Assembly (NCBI GenBank): GCA_033977065.1
Contig: JAXCHI010000002.1
Location: 128,001-192,000 of the forward strand
Source: Candidatus Algichlamydia australiensis
Lineage (GTDB): Bacteria; Chlamydiota; Chlamydiia; Chlamydiales; JAJFMI01
Direction of reading: 5' to 3'
Length of the DNA: 64,000 nt
The notes beneath the pieces were generated by a model, which was not told the DNA's origin, did not search any database, and saw only the letters and a list, made by a program, of their open reading frames with translations. Made by a program: the position numbers and the translations under genes. Shown here piece by piece: positions 18,259 through 28,478 of the stretch; within the stretch, counting starts at the first letter, position 1; each line of letters starts with the position of its first letter.

Positions 18259-19617
18259 TTAATTGGCTTTTTTAGCTAAAGGAGAAAACCCTGAAGGAGC
18301 GCCTTTTTCAACAAGAAAATCATGTAGGCCATGGAGCTTATTCTTGTCTGCTTCTAAAACTTCGTCAGAATTAAGGTTATTTGTGATGATTCTAGTTATT
18401 GCTAGTCCCTTATCATCACGCTTATTTAGCAATTCTGAAAGTTGTTCAGGGTTTTTTTGGAACATGATATCGATAAATTGACGAAAGTTATCCAAATCTA
18501 CCAATCCATCGATTAAAACATAAATTAGAGATTGGTAAATATTGTATACACGAAAATCATAACCTAGATCAAAAAAGTTATGCAGTATGTCAGGAGGGGT
18601 TGAAACAGAAATATCTGTTATTTTAGGGAGGAGAGGTTCGATTTTATTTGGATACTCTTCAAGCAAAAGCCTCATTATTTTGAAAGTTACCTCATTAATT
18701 TTCTCTTCAAATTGATCTCGTCGGAATGAATAACAATCGGCTGGAACCCAACAGCCGTTAAACAAGAGTTCAATAAAGGTGGTTTTTTCTGAGCTCTTTG
18801 CATCAAGAGTATGAGAATTGATCTCTAATAAAAACAAAAAGGAATCGTAGTTTAATATTGTCCATTTATATAAAAAGTTGTCGAATAACTTAGGTGTACT
18901 TAACTCATTTTTGACCTTTTCTCCCGAAGAAGGCTCATTAAATTTATACAGTGTTTTCGCTTCTTCGAGATTATTAGATTCTATGAAAGCCCAGAAGAAA
19001 GAAGATGCATTTTTACGGATAAGATCGGGATGATTTTTTTTAAGAAACTGGTAGCAACTAGTTTGATTGGCACTAGTAATATTCGAAACTACCTGAGATA
19101 TGAGGGTTTCTTCAAATTTACTAGACATATTTATGTATCCAAACCCATTTCCAATTTTTAAATACCATTCGATATAGGTTGGGTCATCATTTTTAAAGCT
19201 ATCTAACGCTTTAAAAATTTTGTTTCTAGCATTGAATATTGAGAAGAAAATATTTCCAACTGTTAACACGGTTAAAAAGGAAATGAATACTTGTGATGAT
19301 TTTCCAGAAAATTCTAAATTTGTAGAGTTGCATTTTTTAAAAATAGGTCTAAAAATATTAAATAGGGCAAAATTAAAATAAATAGAGAACTTTATTCCCG
19401 CAATTATATAAGGAATAGAAAGCTTTTGCACCCTCTCTCTTTTCTCAATTGGACCTACAAGATGATCTTCATTAAGTGCTCTTCCAACTGAATCAATGAG
19501 CACATTTATTGCCACAGCGGTTACTGTAGCTCTGTTTAAATACAGAGGTGCTAATCTCTGAATACCAGATAAGGAGAAAGCAGCGCATTTAGAAAGCGCA
19601 CACGTAATATTACTCAT
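18259..19617 (-). CDS. Hypothetical protein, paralog of 19674-21059; putative secreted or inclusion-membrane effector
   Basis: 452-aa AT-rich ORF; N-terminal hydrophobic segments; shared C-terminus LHxFLVEKGAPSGF. Confidence 0.6.
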   Translation of the reverse strand: MSNITCALSKCAAFSLSGIQRLAPLYLNRATVTAVAINVLIDSVGRALNEDHLVGPIEKRERVQKLSIPYIIAGIKFSIYFNFALFNIFRPIFKKCNSTNLEFSGKSSQVFISFLTVLTVGNIFFSIFNARNKIFKALDSFKNDDPTYIEWYLKIGNGFGYINMSSKFEETLISQVVSNITSANQTSCYQFLKKNHPDLIRKNASSFFWAFIESNNLEEAKTLYKFNEPSSGEKVKNELSTPKLFDNFLYKWTILNYDSFLFLLEINSHTLDAKSSEKTTFIELLFNGCWVPADCYSFRRDQFEEKINEVTFKIMRLLLEEYPNKIEPLLPKITDISVSTPPDILHNFFDLGYDFRVYNIYQSLIYVLIDGLVDLDNFRQFIDIMFQKNPEQLSELLNKRDDKGLAITRIITNNLNSDEVLEADKNKLHGLHDFLVEKGAPSGFSPLAKKAN

Positions 19618-19673
19618 TTTATCATCTCTCGGGGTTTGTATTTTGTTTCATAGAACTAAATATTAATTTTATT

Positions 19674-21059
19674 TTAATTCATAGCAGCACTCTTAGTCGG
19701 ATTTGGGAATCCTGAAGGAGCACCTTTTTCTACTAAAAACACGTGTAGATCACTAATTAAGCCTTTTTGCTCTTCTGAAATTTGGATATGCTCATTAGTA
19801 GTAATCATTTTTACAAGAGAGAGTGTAAAATATTTGCCTTTTATTAATTCAGAAAAGCCCGAAGGATCGATTTCTTCTACTAATTCAATAAATTCTTTGA
19901 ATTTTGTGATCTTTTCTTTATCGAAGTTAGCAGTTCTAAGTATGGGACCATAAAACCCTTGGGTGTGTAAATCTATTGCTGAATTAGAGAACGTTCTATA
20001 AAGAGTTGTTTTTTGAACTCTATATCCAATATCATATAGTTTGGGAAGAATTTCTGGAGCTTCAAAAAAAGAAAAAGAATTAATCTTTGGAAAATATTCT
20101 TTTACTGATTCTGGGTAGTGTTCTATTATATGGCTTTTAGTCCTTAATCTCTCATTTTCTATTTCTTCATCTGCAATATTGGGATTCCATGTATTTACAA
20201 AAATAGATTTATTGAGAGTATGACCATGACTGTTTTTTATTTTGAATAAGTTGGGGTTAATTTTAAGTAAAAAGACGAGGGATTCATAAGTTAAATAGTC
20301 CCAAGACAAAAACTCTCCCTTGAAAATATTATTTGTTGTGAGAATATTTATTATTCCATTTTTATCGCAATACGATTTATGAAACTCAAATAACTCCCTT
20401 GCTTTTTCCAAATTTTTCGAAATTATAAAACGTTTGAAAAAGGCAGAAACATGTTCGTGGATAAATTTGGGATGGGTATCCTTTACATACTGATAAACTT
20501 CTACTTGGCCGTTTTCAATATTCAAGCAAAGATTTCTGCTTAGCAAACTATTGAAATAATCTATTTTTTTAAAAATATTAAGAGCATAGTTAGCTGTAAA
20601 AAAGGTGCCAATATAGGTTGTATTATTATTTTCAAAACTTTTTTGAAGTTTATTTTCAATATAAGACTTGATTTTTTCTCTGCCATTTATAATAGATAAA
20701 CCAATATTTCCAATAGTTATTGCCAACAACACTACACCAAACTGTTTTGTTAAACTCTTATGAATTGGATTCTCAAAACCCTCAGGTAAGTTTTCTGGAA
20801 TATTTAAAAAAACAAGGCCAACTACCGATAAATCATATAGTACAAACCTAGTAAGAAGTTGTGTTTCATTAAAAATTTTATTAAATCGACTAGGATACCC
20901 ATTTGCTCCAATGATGTGTGCTTCACCAAAAATTTTATAACCTGCACATTCAATTAAGATATTCACAGCAAGTGTTGTGATAACAGCTGCGTTACGAGAA
21001 ACCGGAGTTAAAGCTCGGTACCCAGAGCTTATAAGAGAACTACATTGAGAAAGCTGCAT
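19674..21059 (-). CDS. Hypothetical protein, paralog of 18259-19617; putative effector
   Basis: 461-aa AT-rich ORF; shared AxNxLI, TxGNI, DxGY and FLVEKGAPSGF blocks. Confidence 0.6.
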   Translation of the reverse strand: MQLSQCSSLISSGYRALTPVSRNAAVITTLAVNILIECAGYKIFGEAHIIGANGYPSRFNKIFNETQLLTRFVLYDLSVVGLVFLNIPENLPEGFENPIHKSLTKQFGVVLLAITIGNIGLSIINGREKIKSYIENKLQKSFENNNTTYIGTFFTANYALNIFKKIDYFNSLLSRNLCLNIENGQVEVYQYVKDTHPKFIHEHVSAFFKRFIISKNLEKARELFEFHKSYCDKNGIINILTTNNIFKGEFLSWDYLTYESLVFLLKINPNLFKIKNSHGHTLNKSIFVNTWNPNIADEEIENERLRTKSHIIEHYPESVKEYFPKINSFSFFEAPEILPKLYDIGYRVQKTTLYRTFSNSAIDLHTQGFYGPILRTANFDKEKITKFKEFIELVEEIDPSGFSELIKGKYFTLSLVKMITTNEHIQISEEQKGLISDLHVFLVEKGAPSGFPNPTKSAAMN

Positions 21060-21060
21060 T

Positions 21061-21480
21061 TTAATTCCTATCTTTCAAGGTTCTATATCTCTCTCCACAA
21101 AAAAACCAAGAGTCTTCTAACTTCCAGCTAAATGGATTATACTTGTAGACGTGCTTATCCACCTCTTGGAAAAAACTTAGGTCAGCATCATGCTTTGCAT
21201 AGTGATGCACTTTCGCCGCAGCAATTGTTAAGACATTTAGAATGGCAAATGAATAAAAGAGTTGTGCTGGAAAAGATTTCCGCGGTGTATCGAATAAGTT
21301 CTTTATTCCTGCATAAACTACTACAGCGGATGTAAAGACTCCAAATTTATTAACCTGAGTTGCCTCTTTTGCTGTCCACACATTTGCTGCTACAAGAGCA
21401 ATGGTTGCTACGGCGTCTGTGCCTTGAACAAATTTGGGATCTATTTTAGGGATAAAATTTTGTACTGTTTTAATATTCAT
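21061..21480 (-). CDS. Hypothetical membrane protein (Inc-like candidate)
   Basis: Several hydrophobic segments; ATGA overlap with the upstream ORF. Confidence 0.5.
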   Translation of the reverse strand: MNIKTVQNFIPKIDPKFVQGTDAVATIALVAANVWTAKEATQVNKFGVFTSAVVVYAGIKNLFDTPRKSFPAQLFYSFAILNVLTIAAAKVHHYAKHDADLSFFQEVDKHVYKYNPFSWKLEDSWFFCGERYRTLKDRN

Positions 21481-21869
21481 TTTTTTAATTCATCCTCGGG
21501 ATAGTAAATTGGAGAGGTATTCTCTTTATTTTCAAAAAAACTATTTATGAAAGAGGCTGTTTCCCTTCCAAGATTTTGTGAGGTTTCTATGAGTTCGTTT
21601 GATTTATTGTAAGCGTATATTAAGACGTTCATAGCAGTTAAAAGATAGAAGAGGGGATTGAGTTTGGTAAAGTGGCAAGAAGCTAGCCCCAATGCTATAT
21701 TTGGTCCTGTAAGCGATCTTTGAATCAAATAGGGATTTTCGTTTCTATACTGGTTGTCAAAGTAAATATTTGAAATAAGCGCTGCAACTTTAGTTGTAAC
21801 TTTTAATGTATGTGTTATTTGCTCTACTGTAGGAAGGGGGAGATATCTCCCTAAGACTGCAGCTGACAT
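21477..21869 (-). CDS. Hypothetical membrane protein (Inc-like candidate)
   Basis: AGGAG SD upstream; hydrophobic segments; first gene of a four-gene AT-rich run. Confidence 0.5.
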   Translation of the reverse strand: MSAAVLGRYLPLPTVEQITHTLKVTTKVAALISNIYFDNQYRNENPYLIQRSLTGPNIALGLASCHFTKLNPLFYLLTAMNVLIYAYNKSNELIETSQNLGRETASFINSFFENKENTSPIYYPEDELKK

Positions 21870-21939
21870 AGATCGGTCTCCTGATTTATAGAGAAAATTT
21901 TACCACAGATAGAGATATACTAAAATAGTATTAAAATTT

Positions 21940-24174
21940 TTATTCCTCGGGGCGCATAACAGGAAAGAAGACCACGTCGCGAATACTGGTTTCTCCTGTA
22001 AAGAGCATGGTAAGACGATCGATGCCGATACCAAAGCCGCCAGTAGGAGGCATTCCCTGGCAGATCGCTTCAAGGAACTCTTCATCGAGGGGACTCGCCT
22101 CTTCATCACCTGCTTCGCGCTTTTCATTTTGCTGGACGAGCAGTTGGCGTTGGATTTCTGGGTCGTTGAGTTCGGTGTAGGCGTTGCAAAATTCAAAGCC
22201 AAGGATGAATGTTTCAAAACGCTCAACGATCTGCTCTTCGCGCTCTTTCGGATTGCGATGCAGCTTGCAGAGAGGAGTCGTTTCAATCGGGTGATCGATG
22301 ATGTGTGTAGGCTGAATAAGATGATGTTCAACGAGTTCTTCAAAGAGCATAGCGATCAGTTTGCCGCGTGGAGCGTTGTCGATCGCTTCTTGTTCAAGAT
22401 CGGATTTGTCGGAGAGAGTCTTGCGTATCTGCTCATCTGAGAGTTTTTCAACATTGATATTGGCATACTCTTGGATGCTATCTTTCATTGTGATGCGCTT
22501 CCAAGGGCGTTGCAGGTTGATTGCGTGCTCTTTTCCCTCTTTATCTTTGCGCATGCCGATCTGTGTGGTGCCGAAAAGGGCGAGAGCGACATCTTCAAAG
22601 ATTTTTTCTACAAAGTCCATCACATCATTGTAATCCCAGTATGCCGCGTAGGCTTCGAGCATAGTGAATTCGGGATTGTGTGTGCGGTCGATACCCTCAT
22701 TGCGAAAAACTTTTGCGAGTTCATAGACGCGCTCAAAGCCTCCTACAATGAGTTTTTTGAGAGGAAGCTCAAGAGAGATGCGCAAAAACATCTCTAGGTT
22801 GAGGGCGTTGAGGTGCGAGACGAAGGGACGCGCTTCGGCACCGCCATACATGTTTTGCAGAACGGGATTTTCGACTTCCAGAAACTTTGTCTCCTCCATT
22901 GTTTTGCGAATGGTGGAGAGGATTTTTGAGCGAACTTTAAATGTCTCGATCGACTGTTTGTTGGTGATCAGGTCGAGCCAGCGCTTGCGGTAGCGTGTGC
23001 CTTTATCGGTTAGGCCGTGATGCTTGTCGGGAAGCGGAAGAAGAGATTTTGTAAGAAGAGTGACCTCTTTAGCATAGAGAGTAAGCTCGCCTTTTTGCGT
23101 GCGAAAGAGGTGGCCTGAGACGCCAATAATATCGCCAAGGTCGATCTTCTTTTCAATAAATTTTATTGCTGATTCCCCATCGGGCAGCCCGCAAACAGTT
23201 GTATGATCGCGGTTGAACATCACTTGAACGCGCTCTCCCTCTTCTTGCAGATGGGCAAAAGCGTTTTTTCCCATAGCGCGAAAGAGCATGAGACGGCCAG
23301 CGACACAGCTCTCAGGTGTGGTCCCACTTGCTGCTGCTTCGCTATCTGCTAACTCCTCTTTTTCATATTTACTATTGAGGTCGCGAATCGCGTGAGTGGG
23401 AGAGTACTTGTGCGGATAGGGATTCATTCCTGATGCGCGAATCTCAGCTAGTTTTTCTGAGCGCTTTTTAAAGTCGTCCCACCGAAAGTAATCGGGAAGG
23501 GGGTTGGCAATGATGATTTTTTCTTCAACAAAGCCGCCGCAATATTTTTCGATCAGGGTTTTAAGCTCAAGAGTAGCCTGGCGCAGCTCTTCTTTAGTCG
23601 TGCTTTCTAAACCCTCAATAACAAAGTTTGCGTTAGTTGTATTCTCAGTGACTTTACTCTTCTCACATTCACGATAGTTCCAAGAGCGACAGAGTACTTC
23701 CTCATCGTCGCGGTAGATAACCTCACCGGGATTCACATTTACCGTTTTGTCACCACCCAAAATAGTGAAGGGCTCATTACCTTCTGCAACCGTTAGTTCA
23801 ATTTTTCCCTTCACGTGATCAAGGTCATCAGAACCAGCTGCTAGGGTATGCTTTAAAGAGATAAGGTTGTAGAGATTGACAAGGGGATTGATGTCGGGAA
23901 GCTCTTTACCCTGCAAAGCGCGACGCGTGAGCGCTTCAACAGAGCTGCGATCTTTAGAACCAAAAGCGCGGTAGGCTTCACGCCAATCTTTAATCTTAGG
24001 CACCTGAGAAATTTTTTCAATTTCATAGCGCTCGCGAATCTCTTTTTCAGCAACGCGTAGCTGCTCCAAGATTTCTGCATGCGCTTTGCGATTATTGGCA
24101 CCGCGAACGGTAACAACCCCAAGCTTGGCATGGGGGAATTTCTTTTTAATTTCTGGGGCTATTTGTACGATCAT
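21940..24174 (-). CDS. lysS: Class II lysine--tRNA ligase with N-terminal B3/4 editing-like domain
   Basis: From about aa 225: AGRLMLFRAMGK OB fold, GGAEARPF, FRNEGIDRTHNPEFT, GMPPTGGFGIGIDRL. aa 1-220: WREAYRAFG, SSVEAL.RR, INPLVNLYNLISL, GEVIYRDD, WNYRE (B3/4). Confidence 0.95.
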   Translation of the reverse strand: MIVQIAPEIKKKFPHAKLGVVTVRGANNRKAHAEILEQLRVAEKEIRERYEIEKISQVPKIKDWREAYRAFGSKDRSSVEALTRRALQGKELPDINPLVNLYNLISLKHTLAAGSDDLDHVKGKIELTVAEGNEPFTILGGDKTVNVNPGEVIYRDDEEVLCRSWNYRECEKSKVTENTTNANFVIEGLESTTKEELRQATLELKTLIEKYCGGFVEEKIIIANPLPDYFRWDDFKKRSEKLAEIRASGMNPYPHKYSPTHAIRDLNSKYEKEELADSEAAASGTTPESCVAGRLMLFRAMGKNAFAHLQEEGERVQVMFNRDHTTVCGLPDGESAIKFIEKKIDLGDIIGVSGHLFRTQKGELTLYAKEVTLLTKSLLPLPDKHHGLTDKGTRYRKRWLDLITNKQSIETFKVRSKILSTIRKTMEETKFLEVENPVLQNMYGGAEARPFVSHLNALNLEMFLRISLELPLKKLIVGGFERVYELAKVFRNEGIDRTHNPEFTMLEAYAAYWDYNDVMDFVEKIFEDVALALFGTTQIGMRKDKEGKEHAINLQRPWKRITMKDSIQEYANINVEKLSDEQIRKTLSDKSDLEQEAIDNAPRGKLIAMLFEELVEHHLIQPTHIIDHPIETTPLCKLHRNPKEREEQIVERFETFILGFEFCNAYTELNDPEIQRQLLVQQNEKREAGDEEASPLDEEFLEAICQGMPPTGGFGIGIDRLTMLFTGETSIRDVVFFPVMRPEE

Positions 24175-24294
24175 TTCTCAGTTCCTTCCCTCCCATTCTA
24201 GAGAGTTGCCTCTCTTTTGGCAAGGGTTCACAATTTTTCTTTACCTGTATGTAAATTTTTGATAAACTCAGGGAGTTTTTGGATTTGGAGAAAG

Positions 24295-26238
24295 ATGCAA
24301 TTACAAGATTTGCAAAAGCTCGTAGTTAAGGGAGAGTCTGAAACCCTTGAATTTAAAAAAACAACTGGACAAAGATGTGAGGCAGCGAAAACAATTTGTG
24401 CATTTTTGAATGGAGTTGGTGGGTATGTGCTTTTTGGTATTTCCGACGATGGAAAACTTATTGGACAGCAAATAACAACAAAAACTTTAGAAGATATTAC
24501 GCATGAAATACGCAAATTGGAGCCTCCTGCATTTCCAGAAATAGAAATTGTTGGGGTTCGGTCAAATAGGTCAGTGATTGTTGTGCGAGTCCCAGGAAAA
24601 TTTGGGACGTTTTCCTATTGTGGACGGCCTTATATTCGACTTGGCTCTACAACACAGATCATGCCGCGTGAAGAGTATGAAAAACGTATATTGGATAAAT
24701 TTCATGCTCATCGAAGATGGGAAAATGAGCTTGCTCCTGATTGGGTGACAATCGCGGATTTGGATGAGGAAGAGATAGAGACTACATTGCAAAATGCGAT
24801 TCAGCTTGGGAGGATGAGGCAACCTTCTAAAACAGATTCTGAGTCAATTTTAAGGGGGTTAGGTCTCATAGATCAGAATCGGTTGATCAATGCAGCTATT
24901 GCTTTATATGGGAAAAGTGAAAAATTATTTTCGTGCTTTCCTCAGCTTATGATGAAACTGGCTAGATTTCGAGGAGCTGATCGGTTGCAAGGATTTATTG
25001 ATAATCGCGAATACTGGGGGAGTGCTTTTTCTTTGTTAAAAAGAAGTGAGCAGTTTTTACTTGATCATGTTCCTATTGCAGGTAGGGTAGTTCCTGGGAA
25101 AATGATTCGTGAAGATTATCCACTATTTCCCCCACTTGCTATTCGTGAGGCGATGGCAAATGCAATTTGCCATCGGGATTATACCACTTCTGGGGGAGCG
25201 GTTGGTATTGCCATGTATGATGATCATCTTGAAGTAATCAATCCGGGAACATTTCATTTTGATATTACACCTGAAAAACTCTCTTTACCACACGAATCCA
25301 AACCTTGGAATCCCATTATTGCAAGTGTGTTATATCGGGCGGGTGTGATAGAAAAGTGGGGAACAGGAACTTTAAATATCATTGAATGGTGTGTTAAAAA
25401 CAAAAATCCAGCTCCAGAATGGAAAGTACGGTCCCAATCTGTTGTAACGACTTTTTACCCTTCATCAGTGTTTAGTGGATACAAAAAACCCGAGTTGAGG
25501 CCCGAGTCATTAGAGGCAGAGGTGGTAAAATTGCTTCAAAAAGGAGCTCTCTCAAAGTCTGAAATAGCCCAATCTTTAGGGCATAAAAAGATATCTGGTG
25601 CATTGAAGAAAACACTCGATCAGCTGCTTAAGAAAAAAGAGATTTTTTATACAATCCCCGAAAAACCAAATAGTAAATTTCAGAAATATAAAAGTCCTGA
25701 ATCGGGGCCCGAGTTGAGGCCCGAGTTGAGGCCCGAGTTGAGGCCCGAGTTGAGGCCCGAGTCATTAGAGACTGAGGTGGTAAAGTTGCTTCAAAAAGGA
25801 GCTCTCTCAAAGTCTGAAATAGCCCAATCTTTAGGGCATAAAAAGATATCTGGTGCATTGAAGAAAACACTCGATCAGCTGCTTAAGAAAAAAGAGATTT
25901 TTTACACAATTCCTGAGAAACCAAATAGTAGACTTCAAAAATACAAAAGGCCCGAGTCGAGGCCCGAGTTGAGGCCCGAGTCGAGGCCCGAGTCGAGGCC
26001 TGAGTCGAGGCCTGAGTCGAGGCCTGAGTCAAGGCCTGAGTCACTCGAAATGGCTATATTAAAATTACTAGGAGAGAAGCCTCGATCAAAATCTGAAATT
26101 GCTGCTGCTTTAGGTCACAAGCACGTTTCTGGGGGGCTGAAAAAATTGCTTCTTCTTCTGTTGCAACAAGGCAAAATTGCTTACACGATTCCTGAAAAGC
26201 CAAATAGTAGGTTGCAAAAATACCGATTAGAAAATTAA
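24295..26238 (+). CDS. Schlafen/AlbA_2 + ATPase-like (RecG_C / HATPase_c_4 type) protein with three C-terminal winged-HTH repeats
   Basis: ESETLEFKK, CAFLNGVGG.VLFGISDDG (AlbA_2); REAMANAICHRDY, NPG, IEKWGTG; three copies of SKSEIA..LGHK...YTIPEKPNS..QKY; GGAG SD before ATG 24295. Confidence 0.85.
   Translation: MQLQDLQKLVVKGESETLEFKKTTGQRCEAAKTICAFLNGVGGYVLFGISDDGKLIGQQITTKTLEDITHEIRKLEPPAFPEIEIVGVRSNRSVIVVRVPGKFGTFSYCGRPYIRLGSTTQIMPREEYEKRILDKFHAHRRWENELAPDWVTIADLDEEEIETTLQNAIQLGRMRQPSKTDSESILRGLGLIDQNRLINAAIALYGKSEKLFSCFPQLMMKLARFRGADRLQGFIDNREYWGSAFSLLKRSEQFLLDHVPIAGRVVPGKMIREDYPLFPPLAIREAMANAICHRDYTTSGGAVGIAMYDDHLEVINPGTFHFDITPEKLSLPHESKPWNPIIASVLYRAGVIEKWGTGTLNIIEWCVKNKNPAPEWKVRSQSVVTTFYPSSVFSGYKKPELRPESLEAEVVKLLQKGALSKSEIAQSLGHKKISGALKKTLDQLLKKKEIFYTIPEKPNSKFQKYKSPESGPELRPELRPELRPELRPESLETEVVKLLQKGALSKSEIAQSLGHKKISGALKKTLDQLLKKKEIFYTIPEKPNSRLQKYKRPESRPELRPESRPESRPESRPESRPESRPESLEMAILKLLGEKPRSKSEIAAALGHKHVSGGLKKLLLLLLQQGKIAYTIPEKPNSRLQKYRLEN
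25489..25952 (+). repeat. Intragenic near-identical duplication of an HTH module (255-bp period)
   Basis: 25489-25697 recurs almost identically from 25744. Confidence 0.9.
25708..25764 (+). repeat. 12-bp tandem repeat (cccgagttgagg)x4 plus partial, encoding PELR
   Basis: Directly visible. Confidence 0.95.
25948..26043 (+). repeat. 12-bp tandem repeat (aggccYgagtYR)x8, encoding RPES/RPEL
   Basis: Directly visible. Confidence 0.95.
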
Positions 26239-26242
26239 TCGT

Positions 26243-28478
26243 TCAAAAGTGGGTCGACTGTGGGTCGATGTCAATTGTGTAGCGCGTCTCTTTTGGCGTT
26301 TTCAGTTTTGTTTGCAGGTTGATCAGGGCGTTGGAAAGAGTAAATCCTTTTTTAGGTCCTTTGATTAGGAATTGAAAGCGGTAGCGGTCGCGGATTTTGG
26401 CGTAGCCACAGGGGACGACAGGCAATATTTCGTAAGTAGGCGGTAGGAGTTTAAGGAGGATGTCGCGCGCATCTTTGGCAAAGCTCATTGTTGCACCATC
26501 TTTTAGTCCGGAGAAGATCAGCCGGGCGATTTGTGTGAACGGGGGATAGTGAAAGAGTTTGCGCTCTTCGATTTCTTGTGTATAAAAATTTTCATAATCA
26601 TCTTTGGCAGCGAGTTGAATGAGCGGATGTGTGGGCATGCGACTTTGGATGATCACTTCTCCTTCAAGTAGGCTGCGCCCGGAGCGGCCAGCGACTTGGG
26701 TGACAAGTTGAAAAAGGTTTTCACTAGAGCGAAAGTCGGGAATGTTCATGGCACCATCGGAGTTGAGGACACCGACAAGGGTAACAGCGGGAAAATGGAG
26801 GCCTTTGGCGATCATTTGGGTGCCGATGAGCACGTCGGCTTTTCCAGAACGAAACTGTTTGAAGAGTTCATCGTGGCTTCCTTTATGGCGGGTTGTATCC
26901 GCATCCATGCGCAGAGTGCGTATTTCAGGAAAGATGGCCTTGAGGGTGCGTTCCACTTGTTCTGTTCCGGCGCCGCGGTAGTTGAGGGTTTCAGCTGCGC
27001 ATTTGGGGCATTTGCGTGGGGGAGGATTGAGGGTGTAATCGCAGAGGTGGCAGGTAAGCAAGTTTTCTTTTTTGTGAAAAGTAAGGGAGAGTTCGCAGTG
27101 GGGGCATTTGATGCTCTCATTGCACTCGGAGCAGAGCAAAAAAGAGTTATAGCCGCGGCGGTTAAGAAAAAGCAAACTCTGCTCGCCAAGTGCAGTGCGT
27201 TTTTCAATTGCTGCAAGAAGAGGGGCAGAGAGCAGAGGGATGCGTTTCTCTTTTTCTGCTTCGCGCATCAAATCTACGAGCGTGATTTTGGGGCGGCGCG
27301 CGTTTTTAGGGCGGTTTTTCAAAATACTTAATTTGTATTTGCCGTTTTTCGCATTGGTGTAACTCTCTAAGCTTGGTGTAGCAGAGCCAAGGAGGCAGAC
27401 GGCGTTTTCGAGTTTTGCACGCATGATTGCGACATCACGACCGTTGTAGCAGGGCATTTCATCTGTCTGTTTGTAGGAGTTGTCGTGCTCTTCATCGACG
27501 ATAATGAGGCCAAGATTGGGTAGGGGGGGAGAAGAGTGCCGAGCGGGCACCGACGACAATGGGAATTTCACCGCGCGCAATGCGTACCCAACTATCATAG
27601 CGCTCTCCAAAGGAGAGACGGTGGTGGAGTATTGCAATTTTTTCTTGAAAACGACTTTTGAGGCGCTCTGCTGTTTGGGTAGTGAGGGCAATTTCAGGAA
27701 CAAGCATGAGTACAGAGCGTCCCAGTTGCATCGTTTCGGCCATTGCTTGAAGGTAGACTTCAGTTTTTCCTGAACCGGTAATACCGTGCAGGAGATGGGT
27801 GGAAAAGTTTTTTGATTTGATGTCTGCAAGTAGGCAGTCAAGTGCGCTTTGTTGCTGGCTTGAGAGGGTTTTTGGCTTCGTGGGAAAGTAGGGGAATTCA
27901 TCAAAGGGCGTGCGGTCGACTTCAACCTCGCGAATCTCAATCACTCCCTGCTTTTCAAGGGTCTCTACAGGACTTATTGAGCCTTTTGTCTGCTGCAAAA
28001 GCTCTGAAAGAAAGAGTCCTTTTGGTTTTTTTAACAGGGTTTCTAAAACTTTTGCTTGTGCGGGCTTTTTTCTTTGTAGTTCTTTGCAGAGAGCCGTGAG
28101 CTCAGCGAGGGGTTTTTTGCGGCTAATGCGTTTTTGCATTTTTGCTTTTGCTTTGCCGCGCATGGCGGAGGGCAAAAATAGTTTGAGTACGCGCCGCATC
28201 GGTGTAGCGTAGTAGTGGCTGATCCATTCAGCGAGCTGAAAGAGTTCATCTGTGAGTTTGCCCTCTTCATCTAAAATTTCAAGAGCGGTCTGCAACTTGG
28301 CAAAAGCGCTCTTTTTTTTAATTTCGATGATCGTGCCTTTGACTTTTCGCCCGCGAATCGTGACAAGTACGCGCAGGCCGGGGCGCAAATTTTCCCACTC
28401 GTTTGGAGCAAGGTAGTCGAGTGGCCTGTCGAGGGCTTCGTCGAGTTGAACGTTTAGGATTGTCGTAGTCTTTCCCAA
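26243..28478 (-). pseudogene. priA: Primosomal protein N' split by a +1 frameshift at a C7 tract (plus-strand G7, 27523-27529); may be a sequencing error
   Basis: 5' ORF has GITGSGKTEVY, VPEIALT, VVGARSALFSP; 3' ORF continues LPNLGLIIVDEEHD, SATPSLES, Zn-binding Cys pairs, QVAGRSGR; removing one C restores FSPLPNL. Confidence 0.9.

Follow-up and report, generated by a model that had tools for sequence, protein, structure and literature searches.

A CtdA-type B3/4 domain fused to the sole class II lysyl-tRNA synthetase found in Candidatus Algichlamydia australiensis, a candidate tethered editing module

We analysed a 64,000-nt stretch of the Candidatus Algichlamydia australiensis genome (contig JAXCHI010000002.1, positions 128,001 to 192,000; hereafter the window), which carries on its minus strand a lysS gene whose product joins a B3/4 domain to a class II lysyl-tRNA synthetase (LysRS). 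The open reading frame listing and its translation gave a single uninterrupted frame of 744 codons at 21940..24174 (-), opening with an ATG at 24174 and closed by a stop codon at 21940..21942 (-); this agrees with an earlier reading made from the letters alone (the sequence-only reading), which had reported a 744-aa frame. Residues 1-222 (23509..24174, -) form a predicted CtdA-type B3/4 aminoacyl-tRNA deacylase domain, recognised by Pfam, by a search of the Protein Data Bank (PDB) and by structural modelling. The linker ANPLPDYFRW follows (residues 223-232; 23479..23508, -), with neither a stop nor a start codon in the translation. The N-terminal helix and oligonucleotide-binding (OB) fold anticodon-binding domain of LysRS occupy residues 233-375 (23050..23478, -; Pfam and TIGR00499), and the class II catalytic domain residues 391-744 (21943..23004, -; Pfam tRNA-synt_2 and NF001756).

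Each part was matched by its family models. The B3_4 family (PF03483) matched residues 71-203 (E 1.5e-23; 83.7 bits against a cut-off of 29.3), tRNA_anti-codon matched residues 291-374, and tRNA-synt_2 matched residues 391-740 (E 9.5e-86). Among the NCBIfam models, lysS_bact (TIGR00499) covered residues 234-743 with 563.2 bits (cut-off 427.6), which identifies the core as a class II LysRS, and NF001756 gave 646 bits (cut-off 468) on the same part. The claim of a complete class II LysRS thus holds for both the OB and the catalytic domain, and all of the B3/4 motifs that had been listed were present in the translation: W64-REAY..FG72, S78-VEALTRR, I95-NPLVNLYNLISL, G150-EVIYRD and W165-NYRE.

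The appended domain is, on sequence matches and on its predicted structure, of the CtdA type and not of the type found in phenylalanyl-tRNA synthetase (PheRS). A phmmer search of all PDB chains returned two significant matches only, both of them CtdA (9f7e, E 2.2e-23; 9mkl, E 6e-21); PheRS chains were absent from the matches up to E = 1. An AlphaFold2 (AF2) model of residues 1-225, built from an alignment of 73 sequences, reached a mean predicted local distance difference test score (pLDDT) of 97.2. Foldseek superposed it on CtdA 9mkl and 9f7e with a template modelling (TM) score of 0.89-0.90 over 228-230 columns, helical insert included, as compared with about 0.47-0.61 for PheRS-beta chains (next matches ~0.58). 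The model therefore places a B3/4 fold with the CtdA-type helical insert in the fused protein; from the motifs, the sequence-only reading had supposed a CtdA-like B3/4 domain. Consistent with this assignment, the PheRS-beta model pheT_bact (TIGR00472) gave 18.2 bits on the fused protein against a cut-off of 402.65. In one respect the domain departs from CtdA, a stand-alone protein of ~230 aa, in that it is fused in frame to LysRS.

Features around the start and the junction are those of a single gene. A scan with the sigma-70 consensus located a promoter-like TTGCCA-17-TAGAAT at 24195..24223 (-), a pattern match only, with 10 of 12 positions matching. Between it and the ATG at 24174 lies a 5' leader (24175..24194, -) in which a Shine-Dalgarno-like GGAGGGAAGGA can be read. 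Across the junction (residues 215-248) there is no stop and no in-frame ATG, GTG or TTG, so the reported lack of a stop or Met was correct; the first internal methionine, M249, falls within the conserved N-terminal helix of the LysRS core. Reads had been named as a check on the junction, and the Logan contigs of two runs, one spanning 21900-24300 and the other 22181-24300 at a word depth of 639, showed 0 differences there; both runs may derive from the source sample, and they therefore lend no independent support to the assembly.

The database product for the window (P0003) is only 523 aa long. It begins at Ile222, an ATT codon read as Met, and omits the B3/4 domain, indicating that the source annotation kept the LysRS part alone and cut the extra domain off. 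The 519-aa product P0101 has a core nearly identical to that of the fused P0009 in the LysRS-core tree, which suggests a trimmed start in another record too, and some of the "unfused" database entries are probably trimmed annotations. The fusion itself is not a chance frame: the same architecture in 100 further clusters of 90% identity, among the 120 best relatives, confirms it.

The fused enzyme is the sole, housekeeping class II LysRS found in the genome. Its core had one match in its own genome and no class I LysRS family match was obtained there; as the genome is 93.4% complete, the absence of a second LysRS elsewhere in the cell is unproven. The ArgRS of the same genome is a 591-aa frame with no CtdA-like domain, and a separate PheT is encoded on another contig (C3).

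We examined how widely the architecture occurs among Chlamydiota. In a set comprising the query and its 120 best relatives (90%-identity clusters), the domain was N-terminal in 78, C-terminal in 23 and lacking in 20, the last group including the window's own trimmed product; taxon names on the close relatives were Simkaniaceae, Simkania, Neptunochlamydia, Chlamydiia and Chlamydiales. A survey of 400 scored Chlamydiota genomes found domain matches in 62. In 35 of these the domain is fused to LysRS, in frames of 535-818 aa; in two, orthologue-like free-standing copies occur (two copies in G131, one in G139; 50-54% identity, frames of 233-265 aa); and in 25 the matches belong to a distant free-standing family (25-38% identity, pocket N-G-Y-C-D-F). 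By family code, fusions were found in 2/2 genomes of f1 (the genome studied here counted), 17/35 of f9, 13/90 of f10 and 3/3 of f26, and the small-genome family f4 gave no domain match in any of its 29 scored genomes. Coordinates and a tblastn check placed the domain at the N-terminus in 25 of the 35 genomes and at the C-terminus in eight, all eight belonging to genus g39, and gave no assignment for the other two. Within genus g13, 10 of 15 genomes have the domain, and a one-contig genome of that genus (G061) has a 532-aa LysRS frame with no domain match. Nearly all surveyed genomes gave a single LysRS match. The fusion is therefore not unique to this organism: it is frequent in several families of environmental chlamydiae and patchy within genera.

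The free-standing copies have surroundings of their own. The distant B3/4 family includes loci L018-L026 (genomes G305, G050, G223, G208, G233, G252, G361, G100 and G069), and in none of the genomes with matches listed did it occur together with the LysRS-linked type. The orthologue-like copies (loci L015 2281-4696 and L017 3063-5685) lie in apparent operons with genes for amino-acid enzymes. In G139 the neighbours are a YheO-type regulator and a pyridoxal phosphate (PLP) enzyme whose best NCBIfam matches, all below threshold, include the hydroxy-arginine enzymes GntC and capreomycidine synthase VioD. In G131 there is an EutB/EutC-like dehydratase and cyclodeaminase pair. Assignment of this pair to SbnA/SbnB, which make 2,3-diaminopropionate, was rejected, as the best sub-threshold matches are EutB/EutC-like and SbnB scored 104 bits against a cut-off of 327. 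This cyclodeaminase had no match in the genome carrying the window.

Beyond the chlamydiae, the same domain is attached to several synthetases. A HMMER search with the 225-aa domain against 1.84 billion representative sequences returned 3081 matches at E <=1e-3, 148 of them at <=1e-30. Partners were surveyed in the best 150 of the 3081; 39 of these exceeded 300 aa, and 37 were scanned with Pfam, P0008 (already established as a class II LysRS fusion) and P0133 being left out. ArgRS domains were the most frequent partner (20 of 37, 18 with the catalytic domain), followed by TyrRS in four (P0237 among them, with an editing domain of the YbaK type in addition), class II LysRS in four (one a fragment), class I LysRS in two (domain N-terminal in P0145, C-terminal in P0130), GNAT acetyltransferase in two and an amidase in one; the remaining four contained B3_4 alone. 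Among class II LysRS fusions that fall outside the chlamydial clade, P0154 and P0189 carry the domain C-terminally and P0178 N-terminally. Few of these proteins are named to an organism: a single ArgRS fusion, from Candidatus Shapirobacteria (a metagenome-assembled genome), and one LysRS fusion, from Candidatus Babeliales. P0123 is an ArgRS fusion with two tandem copies of the CtdA-like domain, and P0133 is a 3395-aa repeat protein in which 28 separate stretches match domain residues 122-159.

Phylogenies of the domain and of the LysRS core indicate that the domain has moved. The domain tree (IQ-TREE, quick mode) used 178 of 256 rows, 78 near-redundant chlamydial rows being left out, and a FastTree of all 256 agrees with it. 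N-fused, C-fused and orthologue-like free chlamydial copies form one clade with a Shimodaira-Hasegawa-like approximate likelihood ratio test (SH-aLRT) support of 99. In the LysRS-core tree (126 rows) the 23 C-fused rows form a clade whose sister is an N-fused clade of six rows, with support 99, and at least eight architecture changes are required. Two rows of that six-row clade, P0042 and P0049, were retained in the domain-tree subsample; their domains are placed with those of the C-fused proteins at SH-aLRT 93, which lies under the starred threshold. Because the two trees agree, the most likely history, judging from these sequences, is that a single lineage shifted the same domain between the two termini of its LysRS. 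In the domain tree, well-supported branches force at least seven changes of the ArgRS label, and LysRS fusions from outside the chlamydial clade sit in several separate places.

The residues of the substrate pocket known from CtdA are either identical or conservatively changed in the fused protein. The available part of PMC12449066 places N105, G116, E118, C166, Q173 and I189 in the aminoacyl pocket of Salmonella enterica CtdA; it reports from mutants that N105, G116, C166 and Q173 matter, and that Clostridium perfringens CtdA has a catalytically tolerated Glu at the Q173 position. In the phmmer alignment to CtdA these six positions become N103, G114, D116, C162, E169 and V185, so that Asn, Gly and Cys are identical and the changes E to D, Q to E and I to V are conservative. 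All six are the majority residue of the chlamydial clade; 74 of 99 chlamydial fused domains retain the five-position pocket N-G-D-C-E, and the Asn of the catalytic water is kept in 101 of 106 class II LysRS-fused rows.

Only three alignment columns, at a threshold of >=75% within each group, separate the chlamydial LysRS fusions from the ArgRS fusions: 116 (D/E), 159 (E/G) and 172 (K/R). At these columns ArgRS fusions read E-x-R in 21 of 21 rows (E-G-R in 17) and both solved CtdAs read E/G/R; chlamydial LysRS fusions read D-[ED]-K in 73 of 99, and both class I LysRS fusions read D-D-K. On this split we distinguish "K-type" and "R-type" pockets. The K-type accompanies LysRS of both classes and some free proteins, and LysRS is not always K-type: in the class II LysRS fusions from outside the chlamydiae (seven rows) the three columns read E or Q, G or S, and R. 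A simple rule that Asp116 goes with LysRS was accordingly rejected, these fusions having Glu or Gln there. By an approximately unbiased (AU) test, monophyly of the K-type (D..K) group could not be rejected (p 0.244), a result that says little because the group was defined after the tree had been viewed.

The genes next to lysS in the window were also inspected. Divergent from it, 24217-26238 (+) encodes a protein of 673 aa in which Schlafen AlbA_2 and HATPase_c_4 domains are combined with three Fic-like_C winged-helix modules, the latter set apart by PE(S/L)RPE tandem repeats. Beyond it, priA (26243-28478, -) is apparently split by a frameshift into two overlapping frames. One, of 328 aa (27492-28478), has PriA_3primeBD and the beginning of the helicase domain; the other, of 565 aa (26243-27940), has Helicase_C, the zinc ribbon of PriA and PriA_C. 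The gene may be a pseudogene, or the break may reflect a sequencing indel near 27500-27600. Downstream of lysS, 18259-21869 (-) holds four genes without a Pfam family, two for small proteins of 130 and 139 aa and a paralogous pair (461 and 452 aa) in which the N-terminal half is hydrophobic, and the GC content falls to about 0.29-0.34 across this region.

Taken with the conserved pocket, the recurrent and partner-specific fusions (to two LysRS classes, ArgRS and TyrRS, at both termini) argue that the fold edits the tRNA of its partner. We therefore favour, with moderate confidence, the reading that the appended domain is a tethered module for the post-transfer editing of mischarged tRNA(Lys). 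The LysRS core would charge tRNA(Lys), and a catalytically competent CtdA-type deacylase, held N-terminally by a linker of about ten residues, would hydrolyse the ester bond of a non-cognate aminoacyl-tRNA(Lys) while sparing Lys-tRNA(Lys). The amino acid removed would most likely be basic: Arg, an Arg analogue or a lysine analogue. As the same domain occurs at either end of LysRS or free, it is probably a flexibly tethered editor, locally concentrated and "trans-like", that would capture the acceptor end while this is being released or immediately afterwards; action through a fixed channel, as in the editing sites of class I enzymes, is improbable.

A known gap in LysRS editing favours the same reading. 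As described in the available part of PMC5370406, the Escherichia coli enzyme edits homocysteine, homoserine and ornithine before transfer, at the catalytic site; it also loads Arg and several further wrong amino acids onto tRNA(Lys), and Arg-, Thr- and Met-tRNA(Lys) escape deacylation by it. The sequence-only reading had already proposed a LysRS with an acquired module for proofreading a non-cognate basic amino acid, in cis or in trans. Its structural half, a CtdA-like B3/4 domain on a complete LysRS, stands; the proofreading is still something that we infer, and it has been strengthened by the conserved pocket, the repeated fusions to both LysRS classes, the switching of termini and the sister fusions to ArgRS.

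Several observations weigh against an editor of tRNA(Lys). The pocket is so close to that of CtdA that the substrate could be a canavanine-like residue on tRNA(Arg). A quarter of the pockets have changed, with 25 of the 99 chlamydial fused domains altered at one or more of the five positions, and in a few fused domains (e.g., P0109, P0113, P0097 and P0098) most pocket residues are gone, so that at least there a non-catalytic role exists. The seven non-chlamydial class II LysRS rows resemble the ArgRS-type signature, and the signature group may be one subfamily rather than a case of convergence. The domain is dispensable, being undetected in five of the 15 g13 genomes and fused in only 35 of the 400 chlamydial genomes. 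Finally, the full-length AF2 model has a predicted TM score (pTM) of 0.42, with a low-confidence catalytic core and pLDDT down to 62 at residues 221-230, which makes the relative placement of domain and core uninterpretable.

The main rival, which we consider unlikely, is that the domain has retained the kind of task that CtdA performs, on a tRNA other than tRNA(Lys), such as removing canavanine or an arginine analogue from tRNA(Arg), and that LysRS serves as a constitutive dimeric carrier. The Asn, Gly and Cys shared with CtdA, and the tolerance of Glu at Q173 in the C. perfringens enzyme, would suit such a substrate. CtdA acts as a free-standing protein, free orthologues of the domain exist in chlamydiae G131 and G139, and the genome's own 591-aa ArgRS has no domain of this kind. 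In addition, the available part of PMC11317633 lists arginine biosynthesis as absent from Candidatus Algichlamydia australiensis, so arginine would be host-derived, which we count in favour of this rival. A mere carrier role, however, leaves unexplained why LysRS recurs as the partner in two unrelated classes, at both termini and in at least six lineages of the domain tree, and why the relatives bearing CtdA's own E/G/R signature are fused to ArgRS.

Less probable again is a non-catalytic appendage, that is, a tRNA-binding or dimer-stabilising module, or one with a new role apart from editing. The N-terminal extensions of eukaryotic LysRS provide a model for a tRNA-binding appendage without catalysis, and class II LysRS is a dimer. 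CtdA is likewise dimeric, according to the available part of PMC12449066. Six fused proteins (P0097, P0098, P0099, P0109, P0113 and P0033) keep the domain with most pocket residues lost. Yet the protein studied here has the majority residue at all six pocket positions, N-G-D-C-E and the catalytic-water Asn persist across the fused rows at the frequencies given above, and conservation of a substrate pocket would be unexpected for a plain RNA-binding module. From these alignments, a non-catalytic role would suit the few lineages with degenerate pockets and not the fused protein studied here. Hardly credible is an artefact, whether an assembly or frame error or two separately made products, since the 523-aa record product holding the LysRS part alone must be set against an open frame with promoter-like and ribosome-binding-like sites ahead of ATG 24174, a junction with no ATG, GTG or TTG nearby, contigs of two runs (possibly of the source sample) free of differences across it, the same fusion in 34 other genomes and 100 further clusters, and the sign in P0101 and P0009 that another record's start was trimmed in the same way.

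CtdA was described between 2023 and 2025 as a free-standing canavanyl-tRNA(Arg) deacylase (PMC10018355, PMC12449066, PMC12268091). The main texts of these three papers, supplements being outside our scope, mention neither fusions nor LysRS or lysyl. Our full-text literature searches, with most subscription journals outside their scope, found no published description of B3/4-LysRS or B3/4-ArgRS fusions. The fused proteins are present in public databases as plain "lysine--tRNA ligase", and since the pipeline behind at least one record trimmed the domain, the architecture is easily missed. LysRS and ArgRS serve as textbook cases of synthetases that lack a post-transfer editing domain of their own. 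What appears to be new here is the known CtdA deacylase fold as a domain predicted to be appended in cis to LysRS and, in the broader set of relatives, to ArgRS and TyrRS as well.

A broader proposal, which we offer tentatively and with a slight lean towards doubt, is that the CtdA fold serves generally as a plug-in module for editing, repeatedly attached to synthetases traditionally viewed as lacking a dedicated post-transfer editing domain (LysRS of both classes, ArgRS and also TyrRS), and that the chlamydial D/E/K signature marks a new deacylase specificity guarding lysine codons. If this is true, such synthetases would form a new class of cis-editing enzymes, and the targets of the D/E/K type might be Arg-tRNA(Lys) or a natural lysine antimetabolite, for example thialysine or oxalysine. 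It would then point to unrecognised amino-acid analogues or antimetabolites met by intracellular bacteria in their hosts, and E/G/R and D/E/K would be natural specificity variants showing how one fold reads basic side chains.

Among known systems, CtdA (9f7e from Pseudomonas canavaninivorans, 9mkl from Salmonella enterica) is the nearest: it has the same fold with the CtdA-specific helical insert, and the pocket Asn, Gly and Cys are common to both. The domain studied here differs in being fused to LysRS where CtdA is free-standing, in its 25-29% identity over the structural alignment, in having D, E and V where CtdA has E118, Q173 and I189, and in having E159 and K172 where CtdA has G and R. 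The B3/4 domain of PheRS-beta, which hydrolyses mischarged tRNA in cis within PheRS, shares the Pfam family PF03483 and the basic fold; it is distant, with 10-17% identity at the low TM scores given above, and its pocket residues, as stated in the available part of PMC12449066, differ from those of CtdA except for the Asn. The fusions to ArgRS, class I LysRS and TyrRS (P0148, P0184, P0130, P0145, P0206, P0237 and others) carry a CtdA-like domain at 33-47% identity to ours (E <1e-30), the class I LysRS fusions sharing the D/D/K signature with the chlamydial type and the ArgRS fusions having CtdA's E/G/R. LysX, an MprF-LysRS fusion, likewise combines a class II LysRS core with an extra N-terminal module. 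The LysX model scored 501.3 bits on our protein against a cut-off of 742, and matched only over profile positions 620-1101, the LysRS part; the module of LysX is a lipid-modifying membrane domain, whereas the one described here has a deacylase fold.

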